Source of the DNA: an uncultured Bacilli bacterium
Lineage (GTDB): Bacteria; Bacillota_I; Bacilli_A; RF39; UBA660
Length of the DNA: 64,000 nt
Assembly (NCBI GenBank): GCA_934096015.1
Contig: CAKOLD010000002.1
Location: forward strand, 393-64,392
Reading direction: 5' to 3'
The notes below the pieces were generated by a model. The model saw only the letters and a list, made by a program, of their open reading frames with translations, ran no database searches and had not been told where the DNA came from. Shown piece by piece: positions 27,784 to 50,879 of the stretch (positions are counted from its first letter, which is position 1; each line of letters starts with the position of its first letter). The translations under genes were made by a program, and so were the position numbers.

Positions 27784-30591
27784 ATGAGAAATAGATTCAA
27801 AAAGAAACTGATGTTTGTTTTTGTATTGGTTGCTATAATTGGTAGTAGTTTTTTGTATTTAAATAATAATCAATTTAAAAATAAAAATAATTTAGTTGCT
27901 ATTGATTATAGTGAGGATGCTAATTATAAGGTTATATTTGATGCTAGTAGTGGATCATTATCTGGTTTTAATACTTATGGGTATACTAAATTAAGAGATG
28001 GAGTATATGGAGTTAATGATGTAAATAGTCAACCTGAATCAGTAACTTTTTCTGAAAGAAATGGTCACAACATAATGTATTGGAGTTTAGATGCTGCTTG
28101 TTCATCAAAAGATTTACAAGTGGGAGAGAATTTTGATTTATCTACTCATAAAGTCTATTATGCATGTTATGAAGAGGATGGTTTTGACAATGACGGTATA
28201 AGATACCCACAAGAAAATAGTTATGTTTCTGGAGCTATTGTTGAGTGTGGAGATCAAATTCATGTTACTTCTTGTTATGTAAAATTTGGAGGATCAGCTC
28301 GTGATTTAGGCTTTAAAGAATATTGTGATTTTGACAAAATAAAGAGAACTGATAGTGATTCTTTTGTAGAAGGATATGGAACAGTTTATAGAAATAGATT
28401 AAATAAAGCTCCTGTTCAAAATTGTAAGCAAAAATATACTGCATACTTTCATGAACATAGTTTTCAAAATGGAGAAGAAATTTTTGGTGATCAGTTAGAA
28501 TGTGGTTCTACAGAGTATGTAGAAAATGGTGTTTGTAAGTCTGTTGGTAATGCAGGTGATAAAGTAAAAACTCCAAATTCTTCTAATTTAAATTTTTATG
28601 GTAGAAAATTTATAGGATGGGCAGCAGATGATGATGGTGTAGATGTTAACTGTTCTGGCAGTTTAGTTACAGATTATGATGTAGTTATTAATAGTGACGT
28701 TCATTATTATGCTTGTTTTGAAAATAAACAAGAATCTTGTACTAGTTCTTCAAAAATTACTGATGCAGTTGGAACTAATGATGTTAAGGTTTGTTATAAT
28801 TCTGTAAAAAATAGTAGTGGTAATTATGTTTTAAATGCTATTAGTGGTGATTATGGAGAATTAATTTCTTGTAGAAGTGGATATGTATTAGATAATATCT
28901 CTTCGACTAATGTTACTGTTGATACATGTAATAAAGAAGGTATTTGTTATAAAAATTATAGACTTACTTGTAAAAGTCAAGAAAGACCTAAAATTACTTC
29001 AATTACTAATGGTACAGTTAGAAGCGATGGTTATGGTTTAATAGAATTTAGTGCTTATAGTGATGTTGGAATTAAAGGATATTATGCTAGTAGTTTTTAT
29101 GAACAACCAACAGTGAATAGTGGTTGGATATTTGATCCTAGAGGAAGTTATTCAATTAATAGTACTCCTGGTTTAGTATTTTTATGGGTTATTGATAATA
29201 ATAATTCTATTAGTTATTCAGCTATGGGATCAGTATTAGATACGGTAAATAGCGATACTACTTTAAGTTCTTTAGAAATTAAAACTTCTAATGGAGATAC
29301 TTTAAATCCAGAGTTAATTAGTGATGCTTTTGTAAGCAATGCTATAAATTCTAGTAATTATGTAAGATTATCTAATTCATTAGTTAAGGATAGTAAGATT
29401 TTAGCATCTGGTTTTAATCCTTTTGAAACGGGATATAAAATTACTACAAATTCTTCATCAATAACTGTTTATGCAACTTTAACAAGTAATGATTCTCATT
29501 ATGTAAGTGGTTTTGAACCTAGAACAGTGGATCTTGATTATGGTATTAATACTATTTTAATAAAGATACAAGATAAGAATGGTAAAGTAAGAACTTATAC
29601 TATTTTAGTAACTAGAAATGATGATAGAGATTCTACTAATACATTAAAAAGTATTACATTAAGTTCTGGAAAGATTAAGTTTGATCCTTATAAAACAGAA
29701 TATATTGTAAATGTTGGAAAAAATAAAAAGAGTGTTAGTGTAGATGGGGTTTTAAGTAGTAAGAGTTCTCAATTTGTAGATGGATTTGGTCCACGTAAAA
29801 TTGAACTTAAAAATGAACGCACAGAGGTATTATTAAAAGTACAAAGTCAAACTGGAACTATTAGAGCATATTCAATAATATTTGTAAAAACTGATAAAAA
29901 TGAAGAAGAAGGTGGAGAAGCTTTATTGTCTTCATTGAGTTTATCTAAAGCATATATTGCGTTTAATTCAGAAGTTTTTGAATATAATACTACTGTTGAA
30001 TATGAAGTTGATAGTTTGGATATATATGCTTTAGCACTTAATGGTGGAGATGCAGTAACAATTTATAAAAATAATCAAGGTGTAGAAGAAATTGTTAATC
30101 CATCTAATGTTGAACTTTCTCCTGGTTATAATAATTTTATAATTAAAGTTAGCAGTAAATCAGGAAAAGTAAATAAGTATTATTTGAATATTTTGAGAAA
30201 TGAAACTGGTTTAGATGTTTCTAGTGAAACGAAGTTAAGTATGCTTAGTATAGATGGATATGATATAAATTTTAATTCTGATAAATTGAATTATGAAGTT
30301 AAAATTAAATCGGAGAAGACTTTAGTTATAGCTGCAACACCTCAGAGTAATCGTTCAGAAATATTTATTAAAGGGAATGATAATTTAACAGCATTTAGTA
30401 CAGTTAGATTAAAAGTAGTTGCTGAAGATGGTCAATCTAGAGAATATATTATTGATATTCAAAAAGATAAATTTAATAAAAAAATAGAAACTATTGGTTT
30501 AATCAGTGGTGTTGGTATAATTTTATGTGGTATACTATTTATTGGTATAAAGAAAAGAAGAAAATCTATTAATGATTATTATGCAGAGTAG
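27784..30591 (+). CDS. large surface protein: Cys-rich N-region, >=4 cadherin-like beta-sandwich repeats, C-terminal TM anchor
   Basis: signal/TM at N-terminus; repeats 'LSSLxxxxGxLxFxxxxxxYxxxV' x4; 'IGLISGVGIILCGILFIGIKKRRK' C-terminal anchor. Confidence 0.6.
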   Translation: MRNRFKKKLMFVFVLVAIIGSSFLYLNNNQFKNKNNLVAIDYSEDANYKVIFDASSGSLSGFNTYGYTKLRDGVYGVNDVNSQPESVTFSERNGHNIMYWSLDAACSSKDLQVGENFDLSTHKVYYACYEEDGFDNDGIRYPQENSYVSGAIVECGDQIHVTSCYVKFGGSARDLGFKEYCDFDKIKRTDSDSFVEGYGTVYRNRLNKAPVQNCKQKYTAYFHEHSFQNGEEIFGDQLECGSTEYVENGVCKSVGNAGDKVKTPNSSNLNFYGRKFIGWAADDDGVDVNCSGSLVTDYDVVINSDVHYYACFENKQESCTSSSKITDAVGTNDVKVCYNSVKNSSGNYVLNAISGDYGELISCRSGYVLDNISSTNVTVDTCNKEGICYKNYRLTCKSQERPKITSITNGTVRSDGYGLIEFSAYSDVGIKGYYASSFYEQPTVNSGWIFDPRGSYSINSTPGLVFLWVIDNNNSISYSAMGSVLDTVNSDTTLSSLEIKTSNGDTLNPELISDAFVSNAINSSNYVRLSNSLVKDSKILASGFNPFETGYKITTNSSSITVYATLTSNDSHYVSGFEPRTVDLDYGINTILIKIQDKNGKVRTYTILVTRNDDRDSTNTLKSITLSSGKIKFDPYKTEYIVNVGKNKKSVSVDGVLSSKSSQFVDGFGPRKIELKNERTEVLLKVQSQTGTIRAYSIIFVKTDKNEEEGGEALLSSLSLSKAYIAFNSEVFEYNTTVEYEVDSLDIYALALNGGDAVTIYKNNQGVEEIVNPSNVELSPGYNNFIIKVSSKSGKVNKYYLNILRNETGLDVSSETKLSMLSIDGYDINFNSDKLNYEVKIKSEKTLVIAATPQSNRSEIFIKGNDNLTAFSTVRLKVVAEDGQSREYIIDIQKDKFNKKIETIGLISGVGIILCGILFIGIKKRRKSINDYYAE

Positions 30592-30599: not shown

Positions 30600-31277
30600 T
30601 TGAAAAAGTATTTTGTTAGTTTAATAATTTTATTAATTTTTCCACTAATAGTTAAAGCTGAGAGTTGTAGTGGAATAAGTGAGACTTATTGTGAAAAAAG
30701 TAACTCATCATGTTTATCTGGATTACAAAACAATGGGTATAATAAATGGAGTACTTCAGGTAATACTGGAGAGACTTGTATTAAAGTAATTGCTGAAAGA
30801 AATGGGACAACAACTACATATTTGAGTGGAATGAATCCTAAAAGCAATTACAAGTGTAGTGATGGAAGTGTAGCAACTGCAACTAGAATTGCTTCGGCTC
30901 TTCCTAGCGAAGAGACTTCTGCTACAGGAAATTATTATGTTCCAGAACTATGGAAAGTAGTTTGTCCTACAAGTTCTTCTGGAAATAATTCTGGTAGTAA
31001 TACTGGTAATAATGGTAGTAATTCAGGAAATACGAATAATTCAGGGACAACAACTACACCGACTACAACAAGAAGTTCTTCTAGTGGATCAAGTAATAAT
31101 GGAACAACAAATAATGGAAATGGAACGTCAACTAATTCAAATGGTCAAATAACTGGTACAACTGAAAGTAAAGATACTGGTGTGAAGACTTATTTTATAG
31201 TTTTGTTTTTAATGGCTGGGGTAGCTTATTTGGTTTTAGTCGTTTCTAAAAAGAAAAATTTATTTAAAAATATTTGA
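30600..31277 (+). CDS. secreted Cys-rich protein with Ser/Thr/Asn/Gly-rich linker and C-terminal TM anchor
   Basis: TTG start with RBS; signal peptide; 'SGNNSGSNTGNNGSN...TTTTPTTT' linker; 'YFIVLFLMAGVAYLVLVVSKKK'. Confidence 0.45.
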   Translation: MKKYFVSLIILLIFPLIVKAESCSGISETYCEKSNSSCLSGLQNNGYNKWSTSGNTGETCIKVIAERNGTTTTYLSGMNPKSNYKCSDGSVATATRIASALPSEETSATGNYYVPELWKVVCPTSSSGNNSGSNTGNNGSNSGNTNNSGTTTTPTTTRSSSSGSSNNGTTNNGNGTSTNSNGQITGTTESKDTGVKTYFIVLFLMAGVAYLVLVVSKKKNLFKNI

Positions 31278-31366: not shown

Positions 31367-32467
31367 ATGAAAAAAATTAATTTTTTAGTGCTAGTTTTAT
31401 TTTGTTGCATGTTTTGTGTTTCAGTTAATGCTGCAAATTCTGGAGATTCAGTAGGCAGTAATTTAACTGAATATAGTTGTTCTAAGTTTCAAGATTCTAA
31501 TATGCTTATTGATAATGATACTTATTTTGGAAGATGTATGAAAGCTACTTGTAGTGGTAATAGATGGAAATTTAGTTATTATTCAACTGAATCAGTTTCT
31601 TGTTCAAATGGTAATTTAAATCCATATATTACTGTTTCTAAATCTGGATGTGATGATTATCAGAATAGTAGTTGTACAGGTACTGTAGTAAAATATTGTA
31701 CTACTTTAAATTATTTTGATTGTAATAGAACAGCTAATGGATCTAAATATGTAAAACCTACTAAAAAGGTAACAAAAACTACTACAGTTGCACCAACAAC
31801 AGAAGCTCCAACTACAGCTGCACCTTTAGATAATAATACTTACTTAAGTAGTTTAAAGGTATCTAGTGGATCAATTAATTTTAATAAAGATGTTAAAGAA
31901 TATAGCATTGAAGTTGAATCTACTATTTCTAGTATTAATGTTGAAGCAACTGCTGAATCTGGAACTTCAACTGTTAGTGGAACAGGGGCAGTAAGTTTGA
32001 GTGATGGAGTAAACACTGTAACTATTACGGTTACTGCCCAAGATGGAAGTACAGATAATTATGTAATTAATATTAACAGAAAAGAAGTATTATCTAAAAA
32101 TGCTAAATTAGCTTCTTTAACTGTTGATGGATATGATATAAATTTTGATCCTGATACTTATAATTATTCTTTAAAAATAAAAAAAGAAAGTACTTTGTCA
32201 ATAGAAGCAACTACAGAGGATAGTAGTGCAATTTATATGGTTCAAGGCAACGAAAATTTAAAAAATAATAGTATGATTAAAGTTGTTGTTACCGCTCCTG
32301 ATGGTGCAACTACTCAAGAATATACAATTACTGTACGTAAGTCTGGTAATGGAGCTGTTGTTATAGTAATTTTGGTTTTGATTTTAGCAATAGGTGGAGG
32401 AGTAGCTGGTTTCTATTTCTACACTAGAAAGAAAAATGCAGGGGATAAAGAGTATGAGTACGAATAA
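31367..32467 (+). CDS. surface protein: Cys-rich N-domain, Thr/Ala/Pro linker, two cadherin-like repeats, C-terminal TM anchor
   Basis: signal peptide; 'TYLSSLKVSSGSINF', 'AKLASLTVDGYDINF' repeats; C-terminal TM. Confidence 0.55.
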   Translation: MKKINFLVLVLFCCMFCVSVNAANSGDSVGSNLTEYSCSKFQDSNMLIDNDTYFGRCMKATCSGNRWKFSYYSTESVSCSNGNLNPYITVSKSGCDDYQNSSCTGTVVKYCTTLNYFDCNRTANGSKYVKPTKKVTKTTTVAPTTEAPTTAAPLDNNTYLSSLKVSSGSINFNKDVKEYSIEVESTISSINVEATAESGTSTVSGTGAVSLSDGVNTVTITVTAQDGSTDNYVININRKEVLSKNAKLASLTVDGYDINFDPDTYNYSLKIKKESTLSIEATTEDSSAIYMVQGNENLKNNSMIKVVVTAPDGATTQEYTITVRKSGNGAVVIVILVLILAIGGGVAGFYFYTRKKNAGDKEYEYE

Positions 32468-32861
32468 AAAGAAAATATTACTAGTAATTTCTATAATATT
32501 TATTGGTTTGCTTGCTTTTAAAGTTTATGCTGATCCAGCTCAAGAAGTTGGTTATGTTGGAGAAAACTTTTGTAGCGAAGATAGTGTAAAAAGATTATTA
32601 GTTATTGCTGGATATATCTTAATATTTGCCAAAATTTTAATTCCATTAATTATTATAATTAAGGGGAGTTTAGATGTTTTTCAAGCAGTTATTGCTAAAG
32701 ATAATAAAATTGTTGCCAGTGTAAAAACTTTAGCATTTAGGATTTTTTTAGGAATATTTATATTTTTTATTCCTAGTTTAGTAAAATGGACAGTTGGGTT
32801 ATTTCCGAATGATAATAATCAATGTTTTGATTGTGTTTTATCTCCAACTGAATGTAGATAA
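32454..32861 (+). CDS. VirB2/TrbC-like pilin-like small membrane protein (paralog 1 of 3), CxxC-containing tail
   Basis: signal segment, two hydrophobic helices around loop 'GSLDVFQAVIAKDNKIVASVK', tail 'CFDCVLSPTECR'; ORF 32436 trimmed to MSTNKKK. Confidence 0.45.
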   Translation: MSTNKKKILLVISIIFIGLLAFKVYADPAQEVGYVGENFCSEDSVKRLLVIAGYILIFAKILIPLIIIIKGSLDVFQAVIAKDNKIVASVKTLAFRIFLGIFIFFIPSLVKWTVGLFPNDNNQCFDCVLSPTECR

Positions 32862-32887: not shown

Positions 32888-32909
32888 AATATAAATAGAG
32901 GTGAGTAAA

Positions 32910-35443: not shown

Positions 35444-35680
35444 ATGAAAGAAGCAAGTGGAGAATTAAGTATGACTGCTGTTGCAATTGTTGCAATTGCT
35501 GCATTAAGTGTTTTGTTCTTAACTGTTATATTTCCAAATATAAAACGTAGTTTAGAACATAATCAATTATGTTCTGCAGCATATGGGTGTACTAATTGTA
35601 CAGGTGGAGTATGTACTTGTACAGCGGTAAATAGCTCTGGTGCAACTACTACTGTAACTTGTGATGACCCAAATAAATAG
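35444..35680 (+). CDS. 78-aa membrane-anchored Cys/Thr/Gly-rich peptide (minor pilin-like?)
   Basis: strong RBS AAGGAGGA; 'MKEASGELSMTAVAIVAIAALSVLFLTVIF' then 'CSAAYGCTNCTGGVCTCTAVNSSGATTTVTC'. Confidence 0.4.
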   Translation: MKEASGELSMTAVAIVAIAALSVLFLTVIFPNIKRSLEHNQLCSAAYGCTNCTGGVCTCTAVNSSGATTTVTCDDPNK

Positions 35681-35704
35681 TCTTTATAGAAAGCTTGTTA
35701 TAAA

Positions 35705-36163
35705 GTGAGAGAGTCTATTGGTGGTGCATGGCTTTTAGGAATTGTTATGACTTTCATTGTTTTATTTGCTAGTTTTTTGGCAGTTTCAATTAATTATTCT
35801 AAAGCTTTTAAAGTTAAAAATAATGTTGTTGATTTAATAGAAAAAAATGAAGGTGTTAATAGTTCAACTGTTGCAGATATATATAATTATTTGCAGAGTG
35901 AAGGATATATTCTTAAGGGGCCATGTAGAAATGGTGGAAAAGGTTTTGACAAGGATGGCGTAGCAACTAATCAATCAAAGTCTTTGTATTGTGTTAAAGA
36001 AAATAAAATACAGGATACTGATACAGGACTTGAAAAATCTTATTATAGTGTAGAAGTGTTTTTTAGATTGGATTTGCCTATTTTTGGAGATGTTTTTACA
36101 TTCCATGTTAATGGAGAAACTATGAGTATATATTTTCCTAAAAATGGGTGGACATTAAGTTAG
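35705..36163 (+). CDS. small N-terminally anchored protein (pseudopilin/TadE-like topology?)
   Basis: N-terminal hydrophobic helix 'AWLLGIVMTFIVLFASFLAV'; start uncertain (GTG). Confidence 0.3.
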   Translation: MRESIGGAWLLGIVMTFIVLFASFLAVSINYSKAFKVKNNVVDLIEKNEGVNSSTVADIYNYLQSEGYILKGPCRNGGKGFDKDGVATNQSKSLYCVKENKIQDTDTGLEKSYYSVEVFFRLDLPIFGDVFTFHVNGETMSIYFPKNGWTLS

Positions 36164-36172
36164 TGAGGATTT

Positions 36173-37189: not shown

Positions 37190-37202
37190 CATTTATTCGT
37201 AA

Positions 37203-37231: not shown

Positions 37232-37257
37232 GTTGTTGTAGGAAAGAAGAGGTATAT

Positions 37258-37623
37258 ATGAATTTAGTAATGTTAGGGGCATTTAATGATTTTTGTTCAG
37301 AAATGTCTGGGATGTTAAAAATTGTTGGTTATGTTGTAACAATTTTTAAAGTAGCTATACCTTTAATAATCGTTATTTATGGAATGATTGATTTAGGTAA
37401 AGCAGTAGTTGCTAGTAAAGATGATGAAATTAAAAAGGCTGCTAAACAAGTTGGTGTTAGATTAGCTGCAGGTATTTTAATTTATTTCATACCATCATTA
37501 GTAATGTTAGTATTTGGATGGATAAGTGACTATAATAATTTAATGACTGAATCTGAATTCCAAGTTTGTTCAAATTGTATTTTGAAACCTGGGGATTGTG
37601 AAGGAAAAGGTTTAGATGGATAA
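37258..37623 (+). CDS. VirB2/TrbC-like pilin-like small membrane protein (paralog 2), CxxC tail
   Basis: 'IPLIIVIYGMIDLGKAVVASKDDEIKKAAKQVGVRLAAGILIYFIPSLV' helix-loop-helix; 'CSNCILKPGDCEG'. Confidence 0.45.
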   Translation: MNLVMLGAFNDFCSEMSGMLKIVGYVVTIFKVAIPLIIVIYGMIDLGKAVVASKDDEIKKAAKQVGVRLAAGILIYFIPSLVMLVFGWISDYNNLMTESEFQVCSNCILKPGDCEGKGLDG

Positions 37624-40401: not shown

Positions 40402-40426
40402 TAATGAATAAAGAGTGGGTGAAAGT

Positions 40427-41276: not shown

Positions 41277-43071
41277 TAAATTAAAAAGTGAGTTGGCTCC
41301 TAAAGGTTTAGATTTTAATATAAATGATTTTGTTATTAGCGATATGTATTGTACTATTTTAACTATTGTTAATTTTCCAAAGATGATTGGCCCAGGATTT
41401 CTTGCTAATGTAACTAGTATCCCTGGTGTTAAATTAGTTATTAAACATATTCCTATAGAATTTTCAACTATGTCAAAAATGATTAATAAAGAGATAGCTG
41501 ATTTAAAGCAAAGATATCAAAGTGAAAATGATAGAACTATGCAAGAAAGTATTAGACAAGATTATGAGTCTTTAGAGTCATTTGTATCTATGCTTGCTTC
41601 TACTCAATCTAGAATATTTGATTTTCAAATGCATGTTATGTTATCTGCTGAAACTAAAGATCAGTTGGAAATGAAAAAAATTCAAGTAAGAAATTATTTG
41701 GATGCTTTGGGTATGAGAGGAATACCAATGATGTTTGAACAAGAGAAAGTTCTAAAATCTATAATTCCAATTTTTCCTAAACAAGATATTGAAGCTAGAG
41801 TAGGAACGCCGATACCTAGTCCTACTATTGCAGCAATGTATCCTTTTGTATTTGATAGTATAAAAGATCCTGGAAATAATAATTCAGCTCCAACTTTGCT
41901 TGGTGTAGATTTTTCAGGAGGAGTTGTATTATTTAACCAATTTTTATACCAAATTAGAAAAGAGTTTAATAGAAATAATGCTAATATGATTATATTAGGT
42001 ACGAGTGGTAGTGGTAAATCTACTGCTGCAAAATTAATGCTTAGAACTCATATAAGAAATGGTTGTCAAATTATTTGTATAGATCCTGAAGGTGAACTTG
42101 AGGAAATGACAAAAACTTATGGTGGTGATTTTATTTCTCTAGGAAAAGGTGGAGAATTTGGTTTAATTAATCCATTAGAAGTTGTTGCAGATGTTGATGA
42201 GGATGAATTAAAACAAGGTTTAGGTTATACAGTTTTAACTAGAACTTTGCAATCTTTAAAAGCATTTTTAAAGTATTATAGTCCATCTATTGAAGAAGAT
42301 GTACTTGCAATGTTTAGTGAAGTATTACAAGATACTTATAAACGTTTTAATATTGATTTTAATACTGATTTTAGTAATTTTAAACCTGAAGATTTTCCGA
42401 CTTTTGATGATGTCTATTCAACTATTAAGGGGAGATTATTATCTATTCCAGAAATGACAAAAGAAAAAGATGTTTTGGAAAGATTAGAATTAAAGATAAG
42501 ACCTTTTGTTAAAGAATTACGTTATTATTTTACTGGCCATACTACTATTGAGCGAGATAGTGACTTTATGGTATTTAATATAAAAGAAGTTATGAATAGT
42601 GATGAAAATATTCGAAATGCATTATTCTTTAATATCTTAAAGTTTGCTTGGGGATTATGTTTAGATAAATCTGTAAATACAGTTATGCTTGTAGATGAAG
42701 CTCACGTTCTTTTAGGAAGTAGAAATGAATTGGGTGCAGAATTCTTAGCACAAATTCAAAGACGTAGTAGAAAATACAATACAGGTACAATAATAATTAC
42801 TCAACAACCAACTGACTTTGCTGCTGATAAAATAATAGTTCACGGTAAAGCAATATTTGATAATGCTTCTTATTATTTAGTTATGGGACTTAAAAAACAA
42901 GCAGTAGAGGATTTAGCAAAATTAATTGATTTGAATGATAATGAAAAAGAGAGTATTAAAACGTATTCTCAAGGTGAGGCTTTGTTTGTTTGTGGTAATA
43001 GAAGAATGAGAATAAATGTGGTTGTTACTCAAGAAGAATTAGATTCCTTTGGGTCAGGCGGAGGATTATAG
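41263..43071 (+). CDS. VirB4/TraE-family ATPase, C-terminal part (Walker A and B)
   Basis: 'IILGTSGSGKST' Walker A, 'VMLVDEAHVLL' Walker B; TTG start immediately after in-frame TGA. Confidence 0.8.
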   Translation: MLVNNKLKSELAPKGLDFNINDFVISDMYCTILTIVNFPKMIGPGFLANVTSIPGVKLVIKHIPIEFSTMSKMINKEIADLKQRYQSENDRTMQESIRQDYESLESFVSMLASTQSRIFDFQMHVMLSAETKDQLEMKKIQVRNYLDALGMRGIPMMFEQEKVLKSIIPIFPKQDIEARVGTPIPSPTIAAMYPFVFDSIKDPGNNNSAPTLLGVDFSGGVVLFNQFLYQIRKEFNRNNANMIILGTSGSGKSTAAKLMLRTHIRNGCQIICIDPEGELEEMTKTYGGDFISLGKGGEFGLINPLEVVADVDEDELKQGLGYTVLTRTLQSLKAFLKYYSPSIEEDVLAMFSEVLQDTYKRFNIDFNTDFSNFKPEDFPTFDDVYSTIKGRLLSIPEMTKEKDVLERLELKIRPFVKELRYYFTGHTTIERDSDFMVFNIKEVMNSDENIRNALFFNILKFAWGLCLDKSVNTVMLVDEAHVLLGSRNELGAEFLAQIQRRSRKYNTGTIIITQQPTDFAADKIIVHGKAIFDNASYYLVMGLKKQAVEDLAKLIDLNDNEKESIKTYSQGEALFVCGNRRMRINVVVTQEELDSFGSGGGL

Positions 43072-43083
43072 GCGGTGAAGCTA

Positions 43084-45165
43084 ATGAATATGAAAAAATA
43101 TAAGTTATTAAAACAAGGTATTATTTCGATATGCTTAGTTTTAATAGCTCTTTTTTCTATTAGAGTTGAAGCAGCTAACTTTGCGTATGCTGATTTTGAC
43201 TGGGATAAATTTTATGATGAAAATATAGATTATTGGACTGATTATTGTACTCATAATTCTGGTAATATGTCTGTTAAAGAATGTGTAGAAATTGTTTTGT
43301 CTGGAAAAAAAGAATATTATGTAAAATTATATAAATTACTAGCAAAATATGAAAGAAAAGGGTTTAAATTAAATGATAACATTGTGTTAGCAACTTCTTT
43401 TTTTGATTTAACACCAGATACATTTACAGAATTACCAGAAGAGTATAAAAAAGAATACATGGATGGTTCAGCTTATAATATTGATACTGAAGAAGATATT
43501 GATAGTTATGATGTTGATACTGATGAAAGTATTGAATATTATCAAAATGAAAAAGATTCTTTAAAAATTTTATTAAAGCATATGTTTTCTTATAAAGCTG
43601 TTTGTAATGGGAATGCTGGAACGCCATCTGTGGATTCTAATGGAAATAAATATTGTGCTTCTGGAACTCTAGATGGAGATACTTGTAGTTCAGTAATAAA
43701 AACTTATGATTTAAATTATTCTGAATATTTAATATCTAAATTAGGTTTTATTGGAAGATTATTTGGTTTAAAAGACAAAAATAGAGATGATTGTTTAAAT
43801 AATGGTGGGGTTAGTTATAAAGTAATTAATGGAAAACAAATTAATTATGATATATATTGGAAGTTTTTAACGGAATCTACTTATTTTGATACGAAAAAAC
43901 ATTTAACAAATAGGTATAAAAAAATATTAGAAAAAACTAATCATTCTCGTATGACTGAATTAAGTGAAAGTGAGTATGAAGCTAATGAAGCTGATATTAT
44001 TAAGATACGTGAAAGAATAGTTAAAGAAATTAAGTCAATACTCGAAGATTATGAAGATTATATGGCTAATACTCCTGATAGTTATAGTTCTAGTTGTACT
44101 GGAGGATCTTTATGGTGGCCTATAGGTGGAGATACTACTACTAATGAAGGTAATGCAATTTTTGCTAAAGATGCTCCTAGTAACTTAAATATTAATAGTC
44201 CTTATGGAAATCGTAAGCATCCTATTACTGGAGAAATGAAGAACCACACTGGTGTTGATTTAGCTGGAACTGAAAATGTTAGTAATGTAATTGCGGTAAA
44301 AGATGGTGTTGTTGTTTATCCCACAAGTAGCGACCCAACTAATTGTCCAAGTAGTACTTCACTTGATAATTGTGGTGGAGGTTATGGAAATTATGTAGTT
44401 ATTCAACATAATGATGGAACTTATACCTTGTATGCGCACATGTACGCTTCTAGTATAACTGTTAAAGAAGGCGATAGTGTAAAACAAGGCCAAGTTATAG
44501 GTAAAGTTGGTAGTAGTGGAAATTCTACTGGAGCACATTTACACTTTGAAGTTAGACAAGGAACCAATAGTTCAAGTTCTAGTGTTGATCCTATGACAAT
44601 ATTATCTAGTGAAAATCCTCGAACTATGAGTGGAGTTTGTGGCGGAACTGCATCAAGTGATTTTATTACATTTTTACATTCTTGGGAAAATGGTAATGCT
44701 GCACCAGAAAGAGATGGAAAATACGTAGTACATGATGATGGCGCTGGTATTCCAACTGTTGGATATGGAGTAGCGTTAAAATATAATATTGAAAGATTTA
44801 GACAAAAGGGAATTGATGTTACAGGAATGACTTTTGGTGATACAATTGATAAATCAATAGTGGATGCTGTTGAGAATGAAGAAATAAATGAAGCATTTAA
44901 TAATGTTAGAAATAAATTATCTGAAAATAATATTACTTTAGCTGAATATCAAATTGAAGCTTTAGTAAGTCGTTATTATAATTGTGGTAATATTAATAAT
45001 TTTCCTTCTATGTATTTAAATTATGGTGATACTGACGCTTTATATGATAATTATATGAGCAAACCAGTAACTGGACAGGGAGTTGGATACTTAAGTGGTC
45101 TTGAAAGAAGAAGAAAAGCTGAATGGCAATTGTTTCATTATCATAATTATGAACTTAACAGTTAG
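43084..45165 (+). CDS. secreted bifunctional peptidoglycan hydrolase: M23/LytM peptidase + phage-type (GH24-like) lysozyme domain
   Basis: signal peptide; 'HTGVDLAG...GYGNYVVIQH...GAHLHFEV' (HxxxD, HxH); 'ERDGKYVVHDDGAGIPTVGYGV' (E-D-T lysozyme triad). Confidence 0.75.
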   Translation: MNMKKYKLLKQGIISICLVLIALFSIRVEAANFAYADFDWDKFYDENIDYWTDYCTHNSGNMSVKECVEIVLSGKKEYYVKLYKLLAKYERKGFKLNDNIVLATSFFDLTPDTFTELPEEYKKEYMDGSAYNIDTEEDIDSYDVDTDESIEYYQNEKDSLKILLKHMFSYKAVCNGNAGTPSVDSNGNKYCASGTLDGDTCSSVIKTYDLNYSEYLISKLGFIGRLFGLKDKNRDDCLNNGGVSYKVINGKQINYDIYWKFLTESTYFDTKKHLTNRYKKILEKTNHSRMTELSESEYEANEADIIKIRERIVKEIKSILEDYEDYMANTPDSYSSSCTGGSLWWPIGGDTTTNEGNAIFAKDAPSNLNINSPYGNRKHPITGEMKNHTGVDLAGTENVSNVIAVKDGVVVYPTSSDPTNCPSSTSLDNCGGGYGNYVVIQHNDGTYTLYAHMYASSITVKEGDSVKQGQVIGKVGSSGNSTGAHLHFEVRQGTNSSSSSVDPMTILSSENPRTMSGVCGGTASSDFITFLHSWENGNAAPERDGKYVVHDDGAGIPTVGYGVALKYNIERFRQKGIDVTGMTFGDTIDKSIVDAVENEEINEAFNNVRNKLSENNITLAEYQIEALVSRYYNCGNINNFPSMYLNYGDTDALYDNYMSKPVTGQGVGYLSGLERRRKAEWQLFHYHNYELNS

Positions 45166-45174
45166 GAGATATTT

Positions 45175-45672
45175 ATGAAGAAAAATAATATAATATTAGT
45201 TATTATTTTAGTTTTACTATTTGCAGTTGCTTTAACTTTGGTATATTTAGAAAAAAGAGATGGTAAAGATGCTCTAGTAACTGAAAATAAAAAGGTTAGT
45301 GTTTTAAAAAATTATAATGAGTTTTATACAGTAAATTCTTGTGTATATCGTTATTTAACTTATGTTCAATCTCGTAATACTGATTTTTTATTAAAAGTAT
45401 TGGATGATAGTTTTGTTAAAAATAATAATATTAATTCTACTAATGTTTTAAATTTTATTAATGTTTATGAGGGAAATATTAATTTTAATTCAAGAAAGAT
45501 GTTTTATGAAAAAGTTAATAGCCATATAACAAAATATTATGTTTATGGATATGTTGAAAAAGATATTATAGATGATGATCCTTTAAGGTATGAAGCTTAT
45601 TATATAGTTAATTTAGATAGTAAGAATAAGGTTTTTTCAATTATGCCTTATAGTGGAGAGTTATTTAAATAG
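45175..45672 (+). CDS. small N-terminally anchored protein, NTF2-sized ectodomain (VirB8/PrgL-like?)
   Basis: one TM + ~130 aa; position after the hydrolase as PrgL after PrgK. Confidence 0.3.
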   Translation: MKKNNIILVIILVLLFAVALTLVYLEKRDGKDALVTENKKVSVLKNYNEFYTVNSCVYRYLTYVQSRNTDFLLKVLDDSFVKNNNINSTNVLNFINVYEGNINFNSRKMFYEKVNSHITKYYVYGYVEKDIIDDDPLRYEAYYIVNLDSKNKVFSIMPYSGELFK

Positions 45673-45680
45673 GTGAGATT

Positions 45681-46169
45681 ATGGAATATATAAAAAAAAA
45701 TATTATGTTAATTATTTTTGTAATATTAGTTATAATATCTTGTATAGTTCTTGTGTTATCTAAAAAAAGTAAAGAAGATGGTTATTATGAAAGAGAAGAA
45801 GTTACTTTAAAAAATTATGAAGTAAATGAGTATATTCCAGTGAATATTACTTATGATCAAATGGCGAGAATTTATTTGCAAGAATATATTTATAAAATAC
45901 TCAATGATAGAGAAGAAGCTTATAATTTATTGGATGCAAATTATAGAAAAGAAAAATTTGGAAGTTATGAAAAATTTAATGAGTATATTGAGGGTATTTT
46001 AAGTGATAAAACTAGACAAGCAGTTGTTTTAAAATATGCTGTAACTGATAAATCTAATTATAGAGATTTTGATATAATTGATGCTAATAATAATTTATTT
46101 ATATTTAGAGAAACTGGGGTTTTACAATACCGGGTTTATTTTGATAGGTATACAGTTTCAATGAGATAG
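45681..46169 (+). CDS. small N-terminally anchored protein, NTF2-sized ectodomain (VirB8-like?)
   Basis: same architecture as preceding gene. Confidence 0.3.
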   Translation: MEYIKKNIMLIIFVILVIISCIVLVLSKKSKEDGYYEREEVTLKNYEVNEYIPVNITYDQMARIYLQEYIYKILNDREEAYNLLDANYRKEKFGSYEKFNEYIEGILSDKTRQAVVLKYAVTDKSNYRDFDIIDANNNLFIFRETGVLQYRVYFDRYTVSMR

Positions 46170-46185
46170 AAAGGAGGAGATCCTT

Positions 46186-47943
46186 ATGGAAAAGTATGAA
46201 GCAAGAAGAGATGGGGAAAAGACTGAAAAAGAACAATTTGAGGAGTCTAATGAAAAACTTGCTAAAACCGCTTTAAAGGGAGCTGCGACTTATTTTGCTC
46301 CAGGAGTTGGTGGTACAGTTGTAGATATGGCTAGTAATACTAAAGCTGGGCAGAAAATAATAAAAGGTGCTGGAAAACTTATGCAACGTACAGAACTTGG
46401 AAAACATGCTGTTAAACTTGATAAAAGTGGAGTGACCGATGCTGCAGATAAGGCTTTAGATTATGTAAATCCAGGTAGTGGTGCCGCTGGTGCTGCAAAA
46501 GGAGCTACTAGTGGTGCTGCAAAAAATGGAGTATCAGGAGCCACAAAAAATGGAGCGGGAGAAGCTGCTAAAAATTCTTTAACAAAAGGATCAACTCATT
46601 CCGATTCTTCTTTAGGAAAATCTAGTGAAATTCCTCAAGGAGATGAATTAAATAATACTTCAAAATCAAATAAAAAATCATTACTTGATTTTGGTGGTGG
46701 AAATTCTAGTGGAGGATTTAATCTTGATATAGTGGGATTAATTGGTAAAAAGAAGTTAATTATAGCTGGTTCTGTAGTGTTTTTATTTTTAATAATAATG
46801 GTTTCTATTGTTTCTGCGAAAGACTTTGGTAACTTAGATTTAACTAATGGTTCTACGGCAATGCCAAGTGGTTCTAGAGGAAGTAGAAATTGTACAGTAG
46901 AAGAGGTAGAAAATAATTTGCTATATGTAGGGGATTCTCGTATTGAAGGTATGAGGGATTCTTTAGATAATACAAATGTGCAGTATGTTGCTGCAAGCAG
47001 TCAAGGTTATTCGTGGTTAACTTCAACTGCTACTAGCGAGTTAGAGTCTACTATAAAAGATGGCTCAATAGTTGTTTTAAGTTTGGGAGTTAATGATTTA
47101 TACAATATTGATAATTATATTAATTATTATAAAGAATTAATGGCGAAATATCCAAATAATACTTTTTATGTTATGAGTGTTAATCCTGTTGATGATGCTA
47201 AAGCAAGTGCTAGTGGGGATCCTGCAAGAAATAGTGATATAGAGGAATTTAATAATAAATTAAAGAGTGCTTTTCCAGATAAATATATTGATTCTTATAA
47301 TGCAATTAAAGGAAGTATTAATACTAACGATGGGGTTCATTATAATACTGATACAAATAAAGAAATTAATAATTATGTAACTAGTTCAATAAGTAGTTCT
47401 GGTAATACGAGATGTGGTACTAGTGCTGGAGCTGGAGGCGATTTAGCAGGTAAATTAGAGGAGGTTGGTACTTGGTATATTGCAAATGTTTCTACTTATC
47501 AGAATGGTAATTCTGGATCTAGAAAATATTATCAAACTCCGTTTGGTTCTAGATCTTTTGGTGATGATTGTACGGAATTTGTTGCAGCTTACATGAGTTA
47601 TATGTGTGGAAGTGATGTTCCTGAATCATATTCTGGAGATATGGTTTATCCTGATGGATCGTGGGCGCAAAGCGTTGCAAGTTGTGGATGGAAGGCTTAT
47701 AGTAGTGATGAAATAGATTCTTTACAAACTGGTGATGTTTTGATAGCACATGCAGGTGCTTTATATAGTACTAAAGGTCATCATGGAGAAATTTATATAA
47801 ATGAAAATCAGACTTTTGGATGGGGAAGTGTTAAAAGTTCTTATCCTACAAGTAACAGTATTCAAAAAGTTGAAAGTGGTGGCCATGTCCATTACAAGGA
47901 TTCTACTCATGATTATGTAACGATATATAGATATGAAGGTTAG
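46186..47943 (+). CDS. membrane-anchored SGNH/GDSL hydrolase + CHAP domain protein
   Basis: Gly/Ala-rich N-region, central TM, SGNH blocks 'VGDSR','GVNDL','DGVHYN'; CHAP 'DDCTEFVAAY' Cys and 'GHHGEIY' His. Confidence 0.6.
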   Translation: MEKYEARRDGEKTEKEQFEESNEKLAKTALKGAATYFAPGVGGTVVDMASNTKAGQKIIKGAGKLMQRTELGKHAVKLDKSGVTDAADKALDYVNPGSGAAGAAKGATSGAAKNGVSGATKNGAGEAAKNSLTKGSTHSDSSLGKSSEIPQGDELNNTSKSNKKSLLDFGGGNSSGGFNLDIVGLIGKKKLIIAGSVVFLFLIIMVSIVSAKDFGNLDLTNGSTAMPSGSRGSRNCTVEEVENNLLYVGDSRIEGMRDSLDNTNVQYVAASSQGYSWLTSTATSELESTIKDGSIVVLSLGVNDLYNIDNYINYYKELMAKYPNNTFYVMSVNPVDDAKASASGDPARNSDIEEFNNKLKSAFPDKYIDSYNAIKGSINTNDGVHYNTDTNKEINNYVTSSISSSGNTRCGTSAGAGGDLAGKLEEVGTWYIANVSTYQNGNSGSRKYYQTPFGSRSFGDDCTEFVAAYMSYMCGSDVPESYSGDMVYPDGSWAQSVASCGWKAYSSDEIDSLQTGDVLIAHAGALYSTKGHHGEIYINENQTFGWGSVKSSYPTSNSIQKVESGGHVHYKDSTHDYVTIYRYEG

Positions 47944-47950
47944 TGGTAAA

Positions 47951-48640
47951 ATGCGAATGAAAAAAATATTTTTGTTGTTTGTAATGTTGTTTATGCTAAC
48001 AGGATGTACTGCGAATTATGAGTTGTCATACTATAATGATAGCTTGGAAGAAAAATTGATTATTCCTAGTTCAAATGTAGAAACAAGTAATGGCTATACT
48101 TTAAATGCTTTGTTGGAAGATTATTTTAATAATATGAATTTATTAGTTAATTATAAAATTCAATCAGGTGATGGGGATGATAATAATTATCCACATTATA
48201 ATAAAAGTTTTAGTACGGTTTCTGGTCTAAATTTAAATTATTCTTATTCTGAGAAGGAAGATTTTAATAATTCTTCTATAGTTTATAGTTTATTTGAAAA
48301 AGTTAATATTACTGATAATTATATAAAAGCCAGAGAGATAAAAAATATATTTAATAATTATGAATTATTGGATGAAATAAATATTGTTTTTAAAACTGAT
48401 AAGAATGTTACTAGTAATAATGCAGATAAAATTGTTAATGACGAGTATATATGGGTTATTAATAAAAATAATTATCAAAATAAAATTATTAACATTACTT
48501 ATGATAATAAAAAAAAGATAAATGTATTTGGAGAAAAAGAAAATTCTATTTTAAATTATATATTAATTATATTAGGATCAGTATTGGCATTAGGGGTTTT
48601 AATAGTATTTTTTAAAATAAGTATTTCTAATAAAAAATAA
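47951..48640 (+). CDS. lipoprotein with C-terminal TM anchor
   Basis: lipobox 'FMLTGC'; C-terminal 'ILIILGSVLALGVLIVFF'; start moved to ATG 47951. Confidence 0.45.
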   Translation: MRMKKIFLLFVMLFMLTGCTANYELSYYNDSLEEKLIIPSSNVETSNGYTLNALLEDYFNNMNLLVNYKIQSGDGDDNNYPHYNKSFSTVSGLNLNYSYSEKEDFNNSSIVYSLFEKVNITDNYIKAREIKNIFNNYELLDEINIVFKTDKNVTSNNADKIVNDEYIWVINKNNYQNKIINITYDNKKKINVFGEKENSILNYILIILGSVLALGVLIVFFKISISNKK

Positions 48641-48686
48641 TAGTAAAAAATAAAAAAATATTATATAATGATGAAAGGAGGCCGCT

Positions 48687-50879
48687 ATGAAATTTAAAGT
48701 TAATCCTAAAGATTTAGTTATATTTGCAGTTTTTTGTGTTTTTCTTTTGTTTTTAAGTTCATTGGCGGTTACGAATGCTATTACAATTATTAATGAAGGA
48801 AAGTTTGTGGGATTTCATCCTCTTTTAGGTTTTACTCCGGATTATATTGTTGGAACGCTTGGAGTATTTATTGGAGTTTTGATTGTTGTATTTGTTAGTG
48901 TCTCATCTTATATTTTTGATAGAAGTAAGGGATTTGGTTTAGAAATAGGAGAAAAAGAAGAAAAAGGCTATAATCGTTGGACTAAAGAATCTGAGATGAA
49001 AAAAGCTTTTAAAGTTGCTAAAGTTGATATTGCTCAAGAAACTGCAGATGTTGCTGGTATACCATTAATTAATGACGGTAAGAGCATGTGGGTTGATAAT
49101 GGAGAATTTCATAATTTAGTTGTAGGAGCAACTGGTAGTGGTAAAACTACTGCATTAGTTCACCCTTTAATTCATTCGTTAATTAAACGTGGGGAAAGTA
49201 TGGTTGTAACTGATCCCAAAGGAGAAATTTACAAAGAACACGCAGAAAGATTAAAATCAAGAGGTTATAATATAATTGTACTTAATTTCCGTGATCCTAA
49301 TATGGGTAATGCTTGGAATCCTTTAACTTTACCATACAGGTTATATAAAAGTGGAAACGTAGATAAAGCTACTGAGTTATTGGATGATGTTGGTAGCAAT
49401 ATTTTTAAAGATAAAAAAGCTCAAGATCCTTTTTGGGAGAATAGTGCTTCGGATTATTTTGCTGGTGTAGCTTTAGGATTGTTTCAGGATGCTAAAGAAG
49501 AAGAAGTTAATTTAAATTCTATTAGTTATGCTACTACAATTGGTGAAGAAAGATTTGCTGGCAATTCTACTTACATTAAAGAATATTTTGGTTTAAAAGG
49601 AGAACAATCTAGTGCTTATACTTTTGCTTCAAATACTATTAATTCTCCTACAGATACTAAGGGAGGTATTTTATCAGTATTTAGAGGTAAAATACGTTTA
49701 TTTGCATCTCGTGAACAATTGTCAGAAATGCTAAGTCACAGTGATTTTGAAATGGCAAGTATTGGAAAACAAAAGACTGCTGTATTTATGATTATTCATG
49801 ATGAAAAAACTACATATCATGCTTTAGCAACAATATTTATTAAGCAATGTTATGAAACATTAATTGATGTTGCTCAAAAGAGTCCTAATGGAAAATTACC
49901 TTTTAGAACTAATTTTATATTAGATGAGTTTGCCAATATGCCACCTTTAAAAGATGTTACAACAATGGTAACTGCGGCAAGAAGTCGTGATATTAGAATG
50001 ACTATGATTATTCAAAACTTTGCTCAACTTAATGATGTTTATGGTAAAGATGATGCTGAAACTATAAGAGGTAACTGTGGTAATTTGATTTATTTATTAA
50101 CAACAGAACTTGCTGCTTTAGAAGAGATTAGTAAGTTATGTGGTGAAAAGAAAAGTAAAGAGAAAGATAAAACTGCTTCAACCCCTTTGGTTACTGTTTC
50201 TGATTTGCAAAAAATGAAGATGAATGAAGTAATTATTATCAGACAGAGAATGGGACCTTTTAGAACTAAGCTTATTCCAAGTTATCAAATAGATTGGGGT
50301 AAAAAGTTTCCTAAGGCAGAATTTGTTGAAAGACAAACTACACCAATTGCTTTATTTGATTTGAGAGAGTTTGTTAAAGTTAGAAGAAGAGATAAGATAT
50401 TTAATGCAGGTGGAGGTAATCCATTTGCAAAACCAGCAGAACCTGGAATGCCAAATGCATCAGTGCCTTCAAATTCAAATAGTAACTCTATATTTCCTCC
50501 AGGAAAAAATGGAGTTAATGTTGATGATTTTCTAAAAAAATTAGATCAACAAATAGCAGCATTAGAAAAAGAAGAACAAGAATTAAAAGAAAAACCTAAG
50601 GTTGAAAAAAGACCACCCAGAGAAGAAAGTAAAAATGAAATTGATACTTTTGATTTATTAGATTTAACAGAGAAAAAACAACCTGAGAAAAAGGAAGAAA
50701 AATTTGAAACATTTAACGATATTTTAAATGCTAATTCAAATAGTAGTTTTGTAAAACGAGAGATGCCAAAAACTGAATCTAAAAAGCCAGAAAAAATAGA
50801 AAAACTTGATGATATAGTTGTTTCAGAACATGATGTTAGTGATGATGAATTTTTTGATGATTTTTTTGGAGATGAATAA
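48687..50879 (+). CDS. VirD4/TraG-family type IV coupling protein with long acidic C-terminal tail
   Basis: two N-terminal TMs, Walker A 'VVGATGSGKTT', Walker B 'NFILDEFANM', tail '...SDDEFFDDFFGDE'. Confidence 0.8.
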   Translation: MKFKVNPKDLVIFAVFCVFLLFLSSLAVTNAITIINEGKFVGFHPLLGFTPDYIVGTLGVFIGVLIVVFVSVSSYIFDRSKGFGLEIGEKEEKGYNRWTKESEMKKAFKVAKVDIAQETADVAGIPLINDGKSMWVDNGEFHNLVVGATGSGKTTALVHPLIHSLIKRGESMVVTDPKGEIYKEHAERLKSRGYNIIVLNFRDPNMGNAWNPLTLPYRLYKSGNVDKATELLDDVGSNIFKDKKAQDPFWENSASDYFAGVALGLFQDAKEEEVNLNSISYATTIGEERFAGNSTYIKEYFGLKGEQSSAYTFASNTINSPTDTKGGILSVFRGKIRLFASREQLSEMLSHSDFEMASIGKQKTAVFMIIHDEKTTYHALATIFIKQCYETLIDVAQKSPNGKLPFRTNFILDEFANMPPLKDVTTMVTAARSRDIRMTMIIQNFAQLNDVYGKDDAETIRGNCGNLIYLLTTELAALEEISKLCGEKKSKEKDKTASTPLVTVSDLQKMKMNEVIIIRQRMGPFRTKLIPSYQIDWGKKFPKAEFVERQTTPIALFDLREFVKVRRRDKIFNAGGGNPFAKPAEPGMPNASVPSNSNSNSIFPPGKNGVNVDDFLKKLDQQIAALEKEEQELKEKPKVEKRPPREESKNEIDTFDLLDLTEKKQPEKKEEKFETFNDILNANSNSSFVKREMPKTESKKPEKIEKLDDIVVSEHDVSDDEFFDDFFGDE

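Follow-up and report, generated by a model that had tools for sequence, protein, structure and literature searches.

A relaxase-less type IV secretion system fixed in the chromosomes of uncultured small-genome gut Bacilli

The stretch analyzed here, 64,000 nucleotides of contig CAKOLD010000002.1 (hereafter, the window), derives from an uncultured Bacilli bacterium and carries, from 27784 to 50879, a block of genes for a type IV secretion system (T4SS). We found that this block is chromosomally fixed and vertically inherited in a large lineage of uncultured, small-genome gut Bacilli, and it very probably represents a domesticated, functional chromosomal T4SS rather than an integrative and conjugative element (ICE). 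The locus is the Bacilli counterpart of a chromosomal system of Patescibacteria, and its closest sequence ties are to the transfer machinery of mycoplasma ICEs (MICEs). The function that we favor, at a probability of roughly 0.45, is the contact-dependent transfer of something other than the locus's own DNA, that is, of a non-DNA cargo.

Results

Gene content and search for mobility genes

A preliminary description of this DNA had reported a co-directional, tightly packed block of T4SS genes, and the list of open reading frames (ORFs) agreed with it on positions, orientation and packing (Table 1). Pfam and NCBIfam matches bore out the VirD4 coupling protein, the VirB4 ATPase and the M23-lysozyme hydrolase and, together with a VirB8-like fold, assign the system to the Gram-positive-type (MPF-FATA) class of T4SSs, as had been proposed. 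From 35444 to 50879, all ORFs are co-directional and either overlap or are separated by at most 68 nt, and the largest intergenic gap anywhere in the block is 89 nt. No terminator-like site was found on the + strand between 35.3 and 50.4 kb; two lie further 3', a weak 5-bp stem at 50497, within virD4, and a hairpin at 50882-50903 that closes the operon. The latter had been called a strong terminator, and while the hairpin is real, only three of its nine stem pairs are G-C.

Pfam scans of the window ORFs detected no relaxase, Rep, tyrosine or serine recombinase, or transposase family. These scans covered nearly all ORFs of at least 170 amino acids (aa) in 1-24 kb and every listed ORF in 24.4-54.6 kb; a 176-aa ORF at 10600-11130, two ORFs of <140 aa at 57-903, and the ribosomal-protein operon from 54.6 kb fell outside them. 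Nor did the window contain a second copy of the tRNA-Leu 3' end or an attachment (att) repeat, and no long direct repeats bracketed the region, the only att-like matches being low-complexity AT sequence. Apart from the terminator, no notable hairpin resembling an origin of transfer (oriT) was seen in the block. The earlier statement that no relaxase, integrase or att partner lies between tRNA-Leu and rpsJ was thus upheld by the Pfam scans and the repeat search.

The search was extended to 84 related loci (L001-L084) from ~80 species-level genomes. A tblastn query with the MobP3 relaxase of the Bacillus thuringiensis plasmid pBMB68 returned no match in the window or in these loci, and no integrase recurred among 142 ORFs flanking the relatives' blocks in a comparison with PHROGs, for which only families with at least two members were shown. 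All conserved block proteins are membrane or secreted proteins, ATPases, or proteins with an ATPase fold, and the block therefore offers no candidate for a cryptic nickase. Within the reach of these searches, the features by which ICEs and conjugative plasmids are recognized (a relaxase, an integrase with an att site, and a patchy, host-decoupled distribution) were not seen in the window and the related loci.

Conservation and vertical inheritance

Homologues of VirB4 number more than 7000, with the best 120 being at least 80% identical and derived from Bacilli or Mollicutes metagenome-assembled genomes (MAGs), on contigs of up to 1.15 Mb. At least 561 stretches were confirmed in a one-genome-per-species collection. 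In the best 80 loci, from gut MAGs of human, rabbit, goat and chicken origin and with one closed 1.52-Mb chromosome among them, VirB4 is 73-87% identical. Host names are the labels on the deposited MAGs, which for these 80 loci read uncultured Bacilli, Tenericutes, Erysipelotrichales, Firmicutes CAG:582 or Ca. Onthousia. Some contigs carry other labels: the records of L021, L022, L034 and L017 name Phocaeicola vulgatus, Muribaculaceae or Clostridium MAGs, and these are probably mis-binned contigs rather than true hosts.

Gene order is shared by the 84 loci as far as each contig reaches, with some envelope genes undetected in divergent loci. The 5' half runs (adhesins), pilin, 78-aa protein, 152-aa protein (one or two copies), 338-aa protein, pilins (one to four), VirB6, VirB3, TrsD and VirB4, and the 3' half continues from VirB4 with hydrolase, VirB8-like (two copies), hydrolase, lipoprotein and VirD4. 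On the 3' side, the window's junction of VirD4, a family 2 glycosyltransferase (GT2) on the - strand and rpsJ is kept in L007 and L009, and the GT2 gene alone was seen in L005 and L011. In distant species, the block is flanked by other housekeeping genes (DnaI-like, RmuC, DedA/VTT, rhodanese and isochorismatase, to which reading of the sequences adds M16 peptidases and MurG/MurB). The recurrent gene clusters in the relatives' flanks are housekeeping ones with no recurrent mobility genes among them, so synteny does not reveal the internal part of a larger ICE or plasmid, which the preliminary description had named as the outcome that would overturn its view.

The ratio of nonsynonymous to synonymous substitution rates (dN/dS; NG86, window versus L005-L011) is 0.08 for VirB4, indicating strong purifying selection, 0.12 for the TrsD-like protein, 0.21 for the VirB3-like protein, and 0.22 for VirD4. 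The envelope and surface genes evolve much faster, with NG86 values of 0.6-0.8 that are unreliable because saturation of dS (~0.7-0.95) is likely at such a high AT content. Pairwise identities of VirB4 and VirD4 track those of the adjacent RmuC and VTT proteins (rho 0.77-0.88, Mantel p 0.001), and VirB4 is more conserved than RmuC, with mean identities of 78% and 69%. Among 1.84 billion cluster representatives, the full-length VirB4 of the lineage forms a single 50% cluster, the other close matches being fragments. Beyond it, relatives are found at 44-46% (rare) and then at 34% or less; the named outgroups, at ~33%, are Thomasclavelia/Coprobacillus, Solobacterium and Erysipelotrichaceae, and the nearest plasmid VirB4 in a search of 72,556 plasmids is 29% identical. 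Conservation, selection, co-divergence and the isolation of the clade together argue for long vertical inheritance of a functional system, rather than an ICE or a remnant. That the intact set is kept in the chromosomes of several hundred related species gives it the look of a permanent organelle and not of a mobile element.

The engine and the VirD4 tail

The ATPase identified earlier as VirB4 is genuine, but it is not the whole protein: the N-terminal domain is encoded by a separate ORF (40725-41276), the TrsD-like gene. This split occurs in the window and in every relative, with all VirB4 homologues being ~596 aa long and each preceded by a 187-aa 'TraC-like' gene, and it is therefore not a frameshift. 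The TrsD-like gene was detected in 82 of the 84 loci. Its products in relatives match PF26593 (TraC-like), and the window protein is homologous to a 227-aa protein of pBMB68 (hyp227). The VirB3-like gene, present in 80 of 84 loci at a conserved position, aligns weakly to positions 3-79 of the VirB4_plasma profile (E=0.013). The VirB3-like, TrsD-like and VirB4 ORFs thus map in order on one fused, 894-position MICE ATPase profile (NF045975), a collinearity that probably reflects either fusion in the mycoplasma branch or fission here. VirB4 scores 337 bits against this profile (the Mbov_0397 family), below its cutoff of 590, and also matches the NCBIfam family conju_CD1110 (3e-48).

The acidic C-terminal tail of VirD4 remarked on in the preliminary description proved to be real and invariant. 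A core of DD-x-[FY][FY]-DDFF forms the extreme C-terminus in 64 of 64 distinct orthologues drawn from the related loci, and it follows a linker of 150-250 aa that varies freely in length and sequence. From its sequence, the tail has the appearance of a docking site to which an adaptor or substrate would bind, and it resembles both the tail of F TraD, which docks the relaxosome protein TraM, and the C-terminal tails of SSB. An exact-sequence look-up of the window VirD4 found no identical record.

Pilins, prepilin-like proteins and adhesins

The pilin-like genes of the preliminary description are present, but their VirB2-like nature and the accompanying Tad-type components had gone unrecognized. 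Three paralogues (at 32436, 37258 and 37683) are VirB2-like pilins at the level of the family, as judged from sequence. In a Pfam batch scan of 144 proteins, 53 of them members of the pilin family, 19 matched T4SS_pilin (PF18895; best 4e-5) and 2 matched T4SS_CagC, in an output that does not name which of the 144 proteins matched; the 121-aa window pilin, taken by itself, gave no Pfam match at E<=0.05. The 203-aa paralogue also has a weak NCBIfam match to MMCAP2_0566. VirB2-like pilins are normally absent from MPF-FATA systems (PMC12102498).

Two small proteins, of 78 and 152 aa, begin with a common leader of six residues, M[KR]E[AS]xG, which is near-invariant across species and precedes a hydrophobic helix. 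Such a shared leader and helix are a prepilin-like signature; the 152-aa protein may, from its position alone, be called TadE-like. Neither Flp_Fap nor TadE was among the 25 most-matched families listed in Pfam batch scans of the Tad-region and pilin sets, the former scan being dominated by generic P-loop families. The TadZ/CpaE-like assignment of the 338-aa protein was resolved by structure prediction only, its family profile having no match among PDB sequences. Purifying selection (dN/dS 0.38) acts on the prepilin-like and TadZ-like genes, which the window clade has kept.

In 15-21 of the more divergent loci (within L032-L083), further Tad-type genes precede the block on the same strand. They encode a T2SSE (TadA/CpaF-type) ATPase (13 of 13 members matching, best 1e-28), CpaB/RcpC (6 of 11, best 8e-7) and two polytopic membrane proteins, for example at 24-3580 in L066 and 108-3133 in L068, and in these distant relatives the gene for the 78-aa protein lies directly 3' of CpaB, the T2SSE ATPase and the two transmembrane (TM) proteins. 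Joined to the prepilin-like and TadZ-like genes, this upstream set gives the T4SS of these species a more complete Tad-type pilus cluster, fused to it. None of the four genes (CpaB, T2SSE ATPase and the two for TM proteins, putatively of the T2SSF platform type) was found by tblastn in the 64-kb window, and the window clade has lost or relocated them.

A 173-aa protein with a prepilin N-terminal methylation motif (N_methyl, 1.7e-9) is encoded at 2647-3168. This makes it probable that the genome encodes a type IV pilin or competence pseudopilin system at another site, whose peptidase might also act on the prepilin-like proteins linked to the T4SS.

Of the surface proteins at the 5' end of the block, the product of 27784-30591 is a putative adhesin, with homologues 5' of the block in several close relatives. 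Reading of the surface-protein translations revealed no LPXTG motif, the anchors being C-terminal TM segments. A collagen-like G-P-T repeat protein occurs 3' of the T4SS core in four loci, among them L046 (12196-12750, - strand), for a total of eight copies, and ORFs similar to it match PHROG 'tail fiber' families.

Channel and envelope proteins

For the VirB6-like and VirB3-like proteins named in the preliminary description, the family matches are below threshold, while position and conservation agree with the assignment. The VirB6-like protein scored 62 bits against MMCAP2_0566 (cutoff 90) and 41 bits against Mbov_0396 (cutoff 70), and its gene was detected at a conserved position in 62 of 84 loci. 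Two anchored proteins of NTF2 size had also been described. The first has a predicted VirB8/NTF2 fold, and the second is presumed to be alike from its size, anchor and position. The second hydrolase, earlier read as SGNH plus CHAP, has only a weak GDSL match (E=0.006), and the gene at its position in relatives encodes papain-like Peptidase_C39_2/C70 or NlpC/P60-like domains.

Table 1. Features of the T4SS block (coordinates in the window)
Coordinates	Strand	Feature	Basis
27784..30591	+	Large surface protein: N-terminal signal/anchor, Cadherin-like beta-sandwich domains, C-terminal TM anchor	Pfam Cadherin-like 2e-22
30600..31277	+	Ser/Thr/Asn-rich surface protein, signal peptide, C-terminal TM anchor	Sequence reading; no family match
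31367..32467	+	Second Cadherin-like surface protein, C-terminal TM anchor	Pfam 2e-17; 20/84 loci
32436..32861	+	VirB2-like pilin paralogue, 141 aa	Homologous to 121-aa paralogue; 33/84 loci
35444..35680	+	Small prepilin-like protein, 78 aa: leader MKEASG, hydrophobic helix, Cys-rich tail	N-terminus near-invariant; no Pfam match
35705..36163	+	Prepilin-like minor subunit, 152 aa	Leader M[KR]E[AS]xG; 49/84 loci, sometimes duplicated; dN/dS 0.38
36173..37189	+	TadZ/CpaE-like protein, 338 aa: receiver-like N-domain, ParA/MinD-fold C-domain, degenerate Walker A (HAGATT)	Predicted structure
37258..37623	+	VirB2-like pilin, 121 aa, two hydrophobic helices	Family-level PF18895/T4SS_CagC; 1-4 copies in at least 54 loci
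37683..38294	+	203-aa protein: extracellular N-domain, VirB2-like C-terminal module	C-terminus aligns to pilin paralogues; synteny
38311..40401	+	VirB6-like polytopic membrane protein, long charged C-terminal extension	MMCAP2_0566 4.6e-17; Mbov_0396 1.5e-10
40415..40735	+	VirB3-like small membrane protein	TcpE E=0.002 (Pfam), weak
40725..41276	+	TrsD-like protein (VirB4 N-terminal domain as own ORF)	VirB4_plasma positions 99-282, 7e-19
41263..43071	+	VirB4 ATPase, C-terminal motor part	Pfam P-loop_TraG/AAA_10; VirB4_plasma positions 293-891, 2e-100
43075..45165	+	Cell-wall hydrolase, M23 peptidase and phage-type lysozyme (VirB1 role)	Pfam 9.5e-28, 7.6e-9
45175..45672	+	VirB8-like protein, TM helix and NTF2 domain	Predicted structure, VirB8/NTF2 fold
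45681..46169	+	Second small N-anchored protein, presumed VirB8-like	Size, anchor and position equal to first; ~30/84 loci
46186..47943	+	Second secreted/anchored hydrolase, possible SGNH and Cys-peptidase parts	Lipase_GDSL_2 E=0.006, sub-threshold
47933..48640	+	Lipoprotein with C-terminal TM segment	LPAM_1 E=0.0018, lipobox Cys; ~40/84 loci
48687..50879	+	VirD4 coupling protein with long variable linker	Pfam T4SS-DNA_transf 5e-55; conju_CD1115 294 bits (cutoff 250)
50838..50876	+	VirD4 C-terminal docking-type motif SDDEFFDDFFGDE	Core invariant in all 64 distinct orthologues
50882..50903	+	Intrinsic terminator-like hairpin and T-run, closes operon	G-C in 3/9 stem pairs

Genomic surroundings

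The window has a G+C content of ~26% with long, intact ORFs (code 11), and composition is constant across 24-55 kb with no break at the T4SS block. Upstream of tRNA-Leu (24318-24404) lie the housekeeping genes for TyrRS, EzrA, IleRS, MiaB, ScpA/ScpB, thymidylate kinase, LexA and YebC; the first block gene begins 3.4 kb downstream of the tRNA, and the S10 ribosomal-protein operon starts at 54618, 3.7 kb past VirD4. Several window-specific genes without an assigned function, absent from the 84 related loci, occupy the interval between the tRNA and the block. A gene for a YfhO-family membrane protein (32901-35423; Pfam 3e-120) interrupts the adhesin/pilin part as an insertion unrelated to the T4SS; its G+C of ~19% is lower than anywhere else in the window, and none of the 84 related loci has the gene. 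The GT2 gene that adjoins rpsJ (53420-54364, - strand) is common to the closest relatives, and with YfhO it resembles the teichoic-acid glycosylation pair of the CsbB/YfhO type.

Between VirD4 and GT2 (50968-53423), the window encodes a histidine phosphatase, an AAA_28 ATPase and a divergently oriented helix-turn-helix (HTH) protein, which L005, L007, L009 and L011 do not have. Homologues of the phosphatase and the AAA_28 ATPase lie directly 5' of the T4SS core in L055 (4000-5659), and a homologue of the HTH protein is found immediately 3' of VirB4 in L052 (10209-10721). This set could be a recurrent accessory module or mark an insertion hot spot. Far upstream, three consecutive ORFs (206-209 aa; 5116-7078) followed by a 346-aa ORF (7075-8115), none with a Pfam match, may be paralogues.

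Comparison with known systems

Relaxase-less chromosomal T4SSs with VirB2 pilins are known from the monoderm Patescibacteria (PMC10633639, PMC12102498, PMC12857230), and that of Southlakia epibionticum (SEML1_0006-0019) is essential for epibiotic growth (PMC10633639). The resemblance to the present locus extends to a monoderm host with a reduced genome and to a chromosomal, lineage-wide, MPF-FATA-derived and relaxase-less system (PMC10633639; PMC12102498), and likewise to a separate TrsD-like ORF before VirB4, a peptidase and lysozyme directly after virB4, and divergent arrays of VirB2-like pilins matching the same Pfam model, PF18895 (PMC12102498). There are differences as well. VirD4 is in the operon and strongly conserved here, whereas the type IV coupling protein (T4CP) of Patescibacteria is mostly unlinked and, in Southlakia, unrecognized or non-essential; VirB8-like proteins, present here, are rarely detected there; and the Bacilli locus adds Tad-type prepilin and TadZ-like genes and cadherin-like adhesins, in a host of a different phylum. 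The named members of the 10 nearest VirB4 cluster representatives are Erysipelotrichales and none is from Patescibacteria, the likeness to the latter being drawn from published descriptions. The view that a relaxase-less, pilin-decorated Gram-positive T4SS would be undescribed hence does not stand in general, but we found no description in the literature of a T4SS in RF39/RFN20-type Bacilli.

By sequence, the best curated matches are in MICE: CDS17/Mbov_0397 for VirB4, TrsD and VirB3, and CDS16/Mbov_0396 for VirB6, all below their NCBIfam cutoffs. MICEs share with the present locus a Bacilli/Mollicutes-type host, a lipoprotein in the module and the lack of a firmly identified relaxase, and one of their coding sequences (CDS3) has a Phyre2 match to MobM, CDS5 being the VirD4 homologue. 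In contrast, VirB3, the N-domain and VirB4 are fused in one protein in MICE and are separate ORFs here; MICEs are mobile, multi-copy and strain-variable and encode a DDE (Mutator-like) transposase (CDS22), whereas here no transposase occurs in the window and the position is fixed. MICEs also have no VirB1- or VirB8-like parts (PMC12857230), both of which are present here, and the present host, unlike those of MICE, is evidently walled (hydrolases, EzrA).

The putative conjugative region of pBMB68 shows the same order of VirB6/TrbL, PrgI/VirB3, TrsD-like protein, VirB4 and hydrolase, its full arrangement being MobP3 relaxase-VirD4-...-TrbL/VirB6-PrgI-227-aa protein-VirB4-NlpC/P60 ... SAF-AAA ATPase-T2SSE ATPase. 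Its SAF (CpaB) and T2SSE proteins match those of the distant subclade. It differs in being on a plasmid, in having the MobP3 relaxase directly before VirD4 and in having no annotated VirB2-like pilin, and its proteins are ~27-32% identical to those of the window. The link between a T4SS and SAF/T2SSE pilus genes therefore also exists on a Bacillus plasmid that has a relaxase, while the present lineage keeps it without one. VirD4, VirB4 and a 'VirB11' ATPase have been reported for the conjugative plasmid pAW63 of the Bacillus cereus group (PMC9673590).

The likeness to the Prg/Pcf system of Enterococcus pCF10 put forward in the preliminary description could not be sustained. The MPF-FATA class and the generic order of VirB6, VirB3, VirB4, hydrolase, VirB8-like protein and T4CP are shared, but the locus has no PrgA/B/C homologues, LPXTG anchors, PcfG or oriT, its VirB4 is split, it carries VirB2-like and Tad-type genes, and its best-matching families are those of MICE and of CD1115-type T4CPs. 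Two mobile islands, neither of them known as a lineage-wide chromosomal locus, are also pertinent, namely 89K of Streptococcus suis and PAPI-1 of Pseudomonas. The former sets a precedent for protein export by a Gram-positive T4SS, and the latter for a filament of the type IV pilus class working with VirB4 and VirD4 (PMC12857230).

Discussion

Based on the data presented above, we think that the cargo of this T4SS is not the locus's own DNA, given that the window contains no relaxase, recombinase or oriT-sized gap and that the 84 related loci have no homologue of the pBMB68 relaxase. By analogy with what has been proposed for Patescibacteria, the cargo would most likely be a protein or other macromolecule exchanged with a partner cell. 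In such contact-dependent transfer, the adhesins and pili would hold another cell and the hydrolases would open peptidoglycan, while the invariant acidic-aromatic tail of VirD4 would recruit substrates, which VirD4 would then pass to a VirB6/VirB8 channel powered by VirB4. Several points weigh against a non-DNA cargo. By its above-cutoff score in the CD1115 family, VirD4 is still a genuine conjugative T4CP, the MICEs, nearest among curated relatives, move DNA, chromosomal DNA included, and no effector candidate was identified. The analogy is also imperfect, since the Southlakia T4SS is without a recognizable T4CP. The system is known here from its genes alone; a relaxase could be encoded elsewhere in the genome, outside the window searched, and singleton integrases in the relatives' flanks could be hidden in the PHROGs family listing.

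The most serious competitor, which we consider less likely, is that the locus carries out chromosomal conjugation between cells of the lineage, much as in mycoplasmas, using a relaxase that is unlinked or unrecognizable, or dispensing with sequence-specific nicking. The likeness of the VirD4 tail to that of F TraD and the score of VirD4 above the conjugative CD1115 cutoff would fit this, as would the best curated matches, which are MICE proteins (Mbov_0397 for VirB3, TrsD and VirB4; Mbov_0396/MMCAP2_0566 for VirB6), since MICEs transfer chromosomal DNA besides themselves with a relaxase that is only putative (PMC12857230, PMC6030558). However, related systems keep a relaxase by VirD4, namely MobP3 in pBMB68 and, going by CDS number, the putative MobM-like CDS3 before CDS5 in MICE, whereas in the window VirD4 has no such neighbour, and none of the 85 regions yielded a homologue of the pBMB68 enzyme. 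Moreover, no intergenic gap exceeds 89 nt, which leaves little place for an oriT, and the conserved block proteins include no candidate for a divergent nickase.

It is improbable that the locus is mainly a pilus or adhesion organelle, or a device for DNA uptake or release, assembled from T4SS and Tad parts. The operon does hold three VirB2-like pilins, two prepilin-like proteins, a TadZ-like protein and cadherin-like adhesins, distant relatives carry the fuller Tad-type set upstream, and T4SS-derived DNA uptake and release systems exist (ComB, GGI and Ced; PMC12857230). Nevertheless, pilus display would not need a strongly conserved T4CP with a docking tail, DNA release of the GGI type requires a relaxase, and the window clade is without Tad ATPase and platform genes nearby.

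Far less probable is that the block is an inner segment of an integrated plasmid or ordinary ICE, with its relaxase and integrase beyond the window or elsewhere in the element. A tRNA-Leu 3.4 kb upstream and the window-specific genes between it and the block would be in keeping with such an element, but core genes lie on both sides (ScpA/B and MiaB before the tRNA, the S10 operon after VirD4), there is no att repeat, the genes between tRNA and block are absent from the 84 loci in which the block is conserved, and the housekeeping genes around the block differ in other species and are not accompanied by recurring mobility genes. Least credible of all is decay, in which the block would be what is left of a conjugative element after the loss of its DNA-processing genes, and itself on the way out: relaxase-less MPF clusters are commonly read in this way in CONJscan-type surveys, and the window clade did lose its Tad ATPase and platform genes, which in distant relatives still adjoin the block, but all window genes are intact, the ordered set is kept in the 84 loci as far as their contigs reach, the engine is under strong purifying selection, the VirD4 tail is invariant, and VirB4 is more conserved than RmuC. 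The ordinary ICE, the decayed remnant and a specific kinship with pCF10 were thus rejected on the evidence of synteny, selection and family matches. Of the possibilities offered by the preliminary description, a domesticated system used for something other than self-transfer fits far better than an ordinary ICE, and decay is contradicted by the retained gene order and a VirB4 dN/dS of ~0.08.

Two broader and related readings, which we weigh jointly and regard as rather doubtful, concern the origin of the system. Patescibacteria and these gut Bacilli, two unrelated monoderm lineages with reduced genomes, may independently have made a permanent contact organelle with pili out of a conjugation machine, and the chromosomal system may be the stock from which the transfer machinery of MICEs was derived. 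If the former were true, these abundant gut bacteria would live attached to bacterial or host cells and depend on T4SS-mediated exchange.

The non-conjugative roles of Gram-positive T4SSs have been stated to be an open question (PMC12857230), and the locus provides a large natural test set for it, a relaxase-less T4SS fixed in hundreds of species of a common uncultured gut lineage, in which the VirD4 tail is a concrete handle for finding the substrate or adaptor. If the system does carry out contact-dependent exchange, it would change the view of the ecology and cultivation of these bacteria, with co-culture with a partner being the obvious route, and if it instead mediates chromosomal conjugation, it would extend gene flow of the mycoplasma type to walled gut bacteria.

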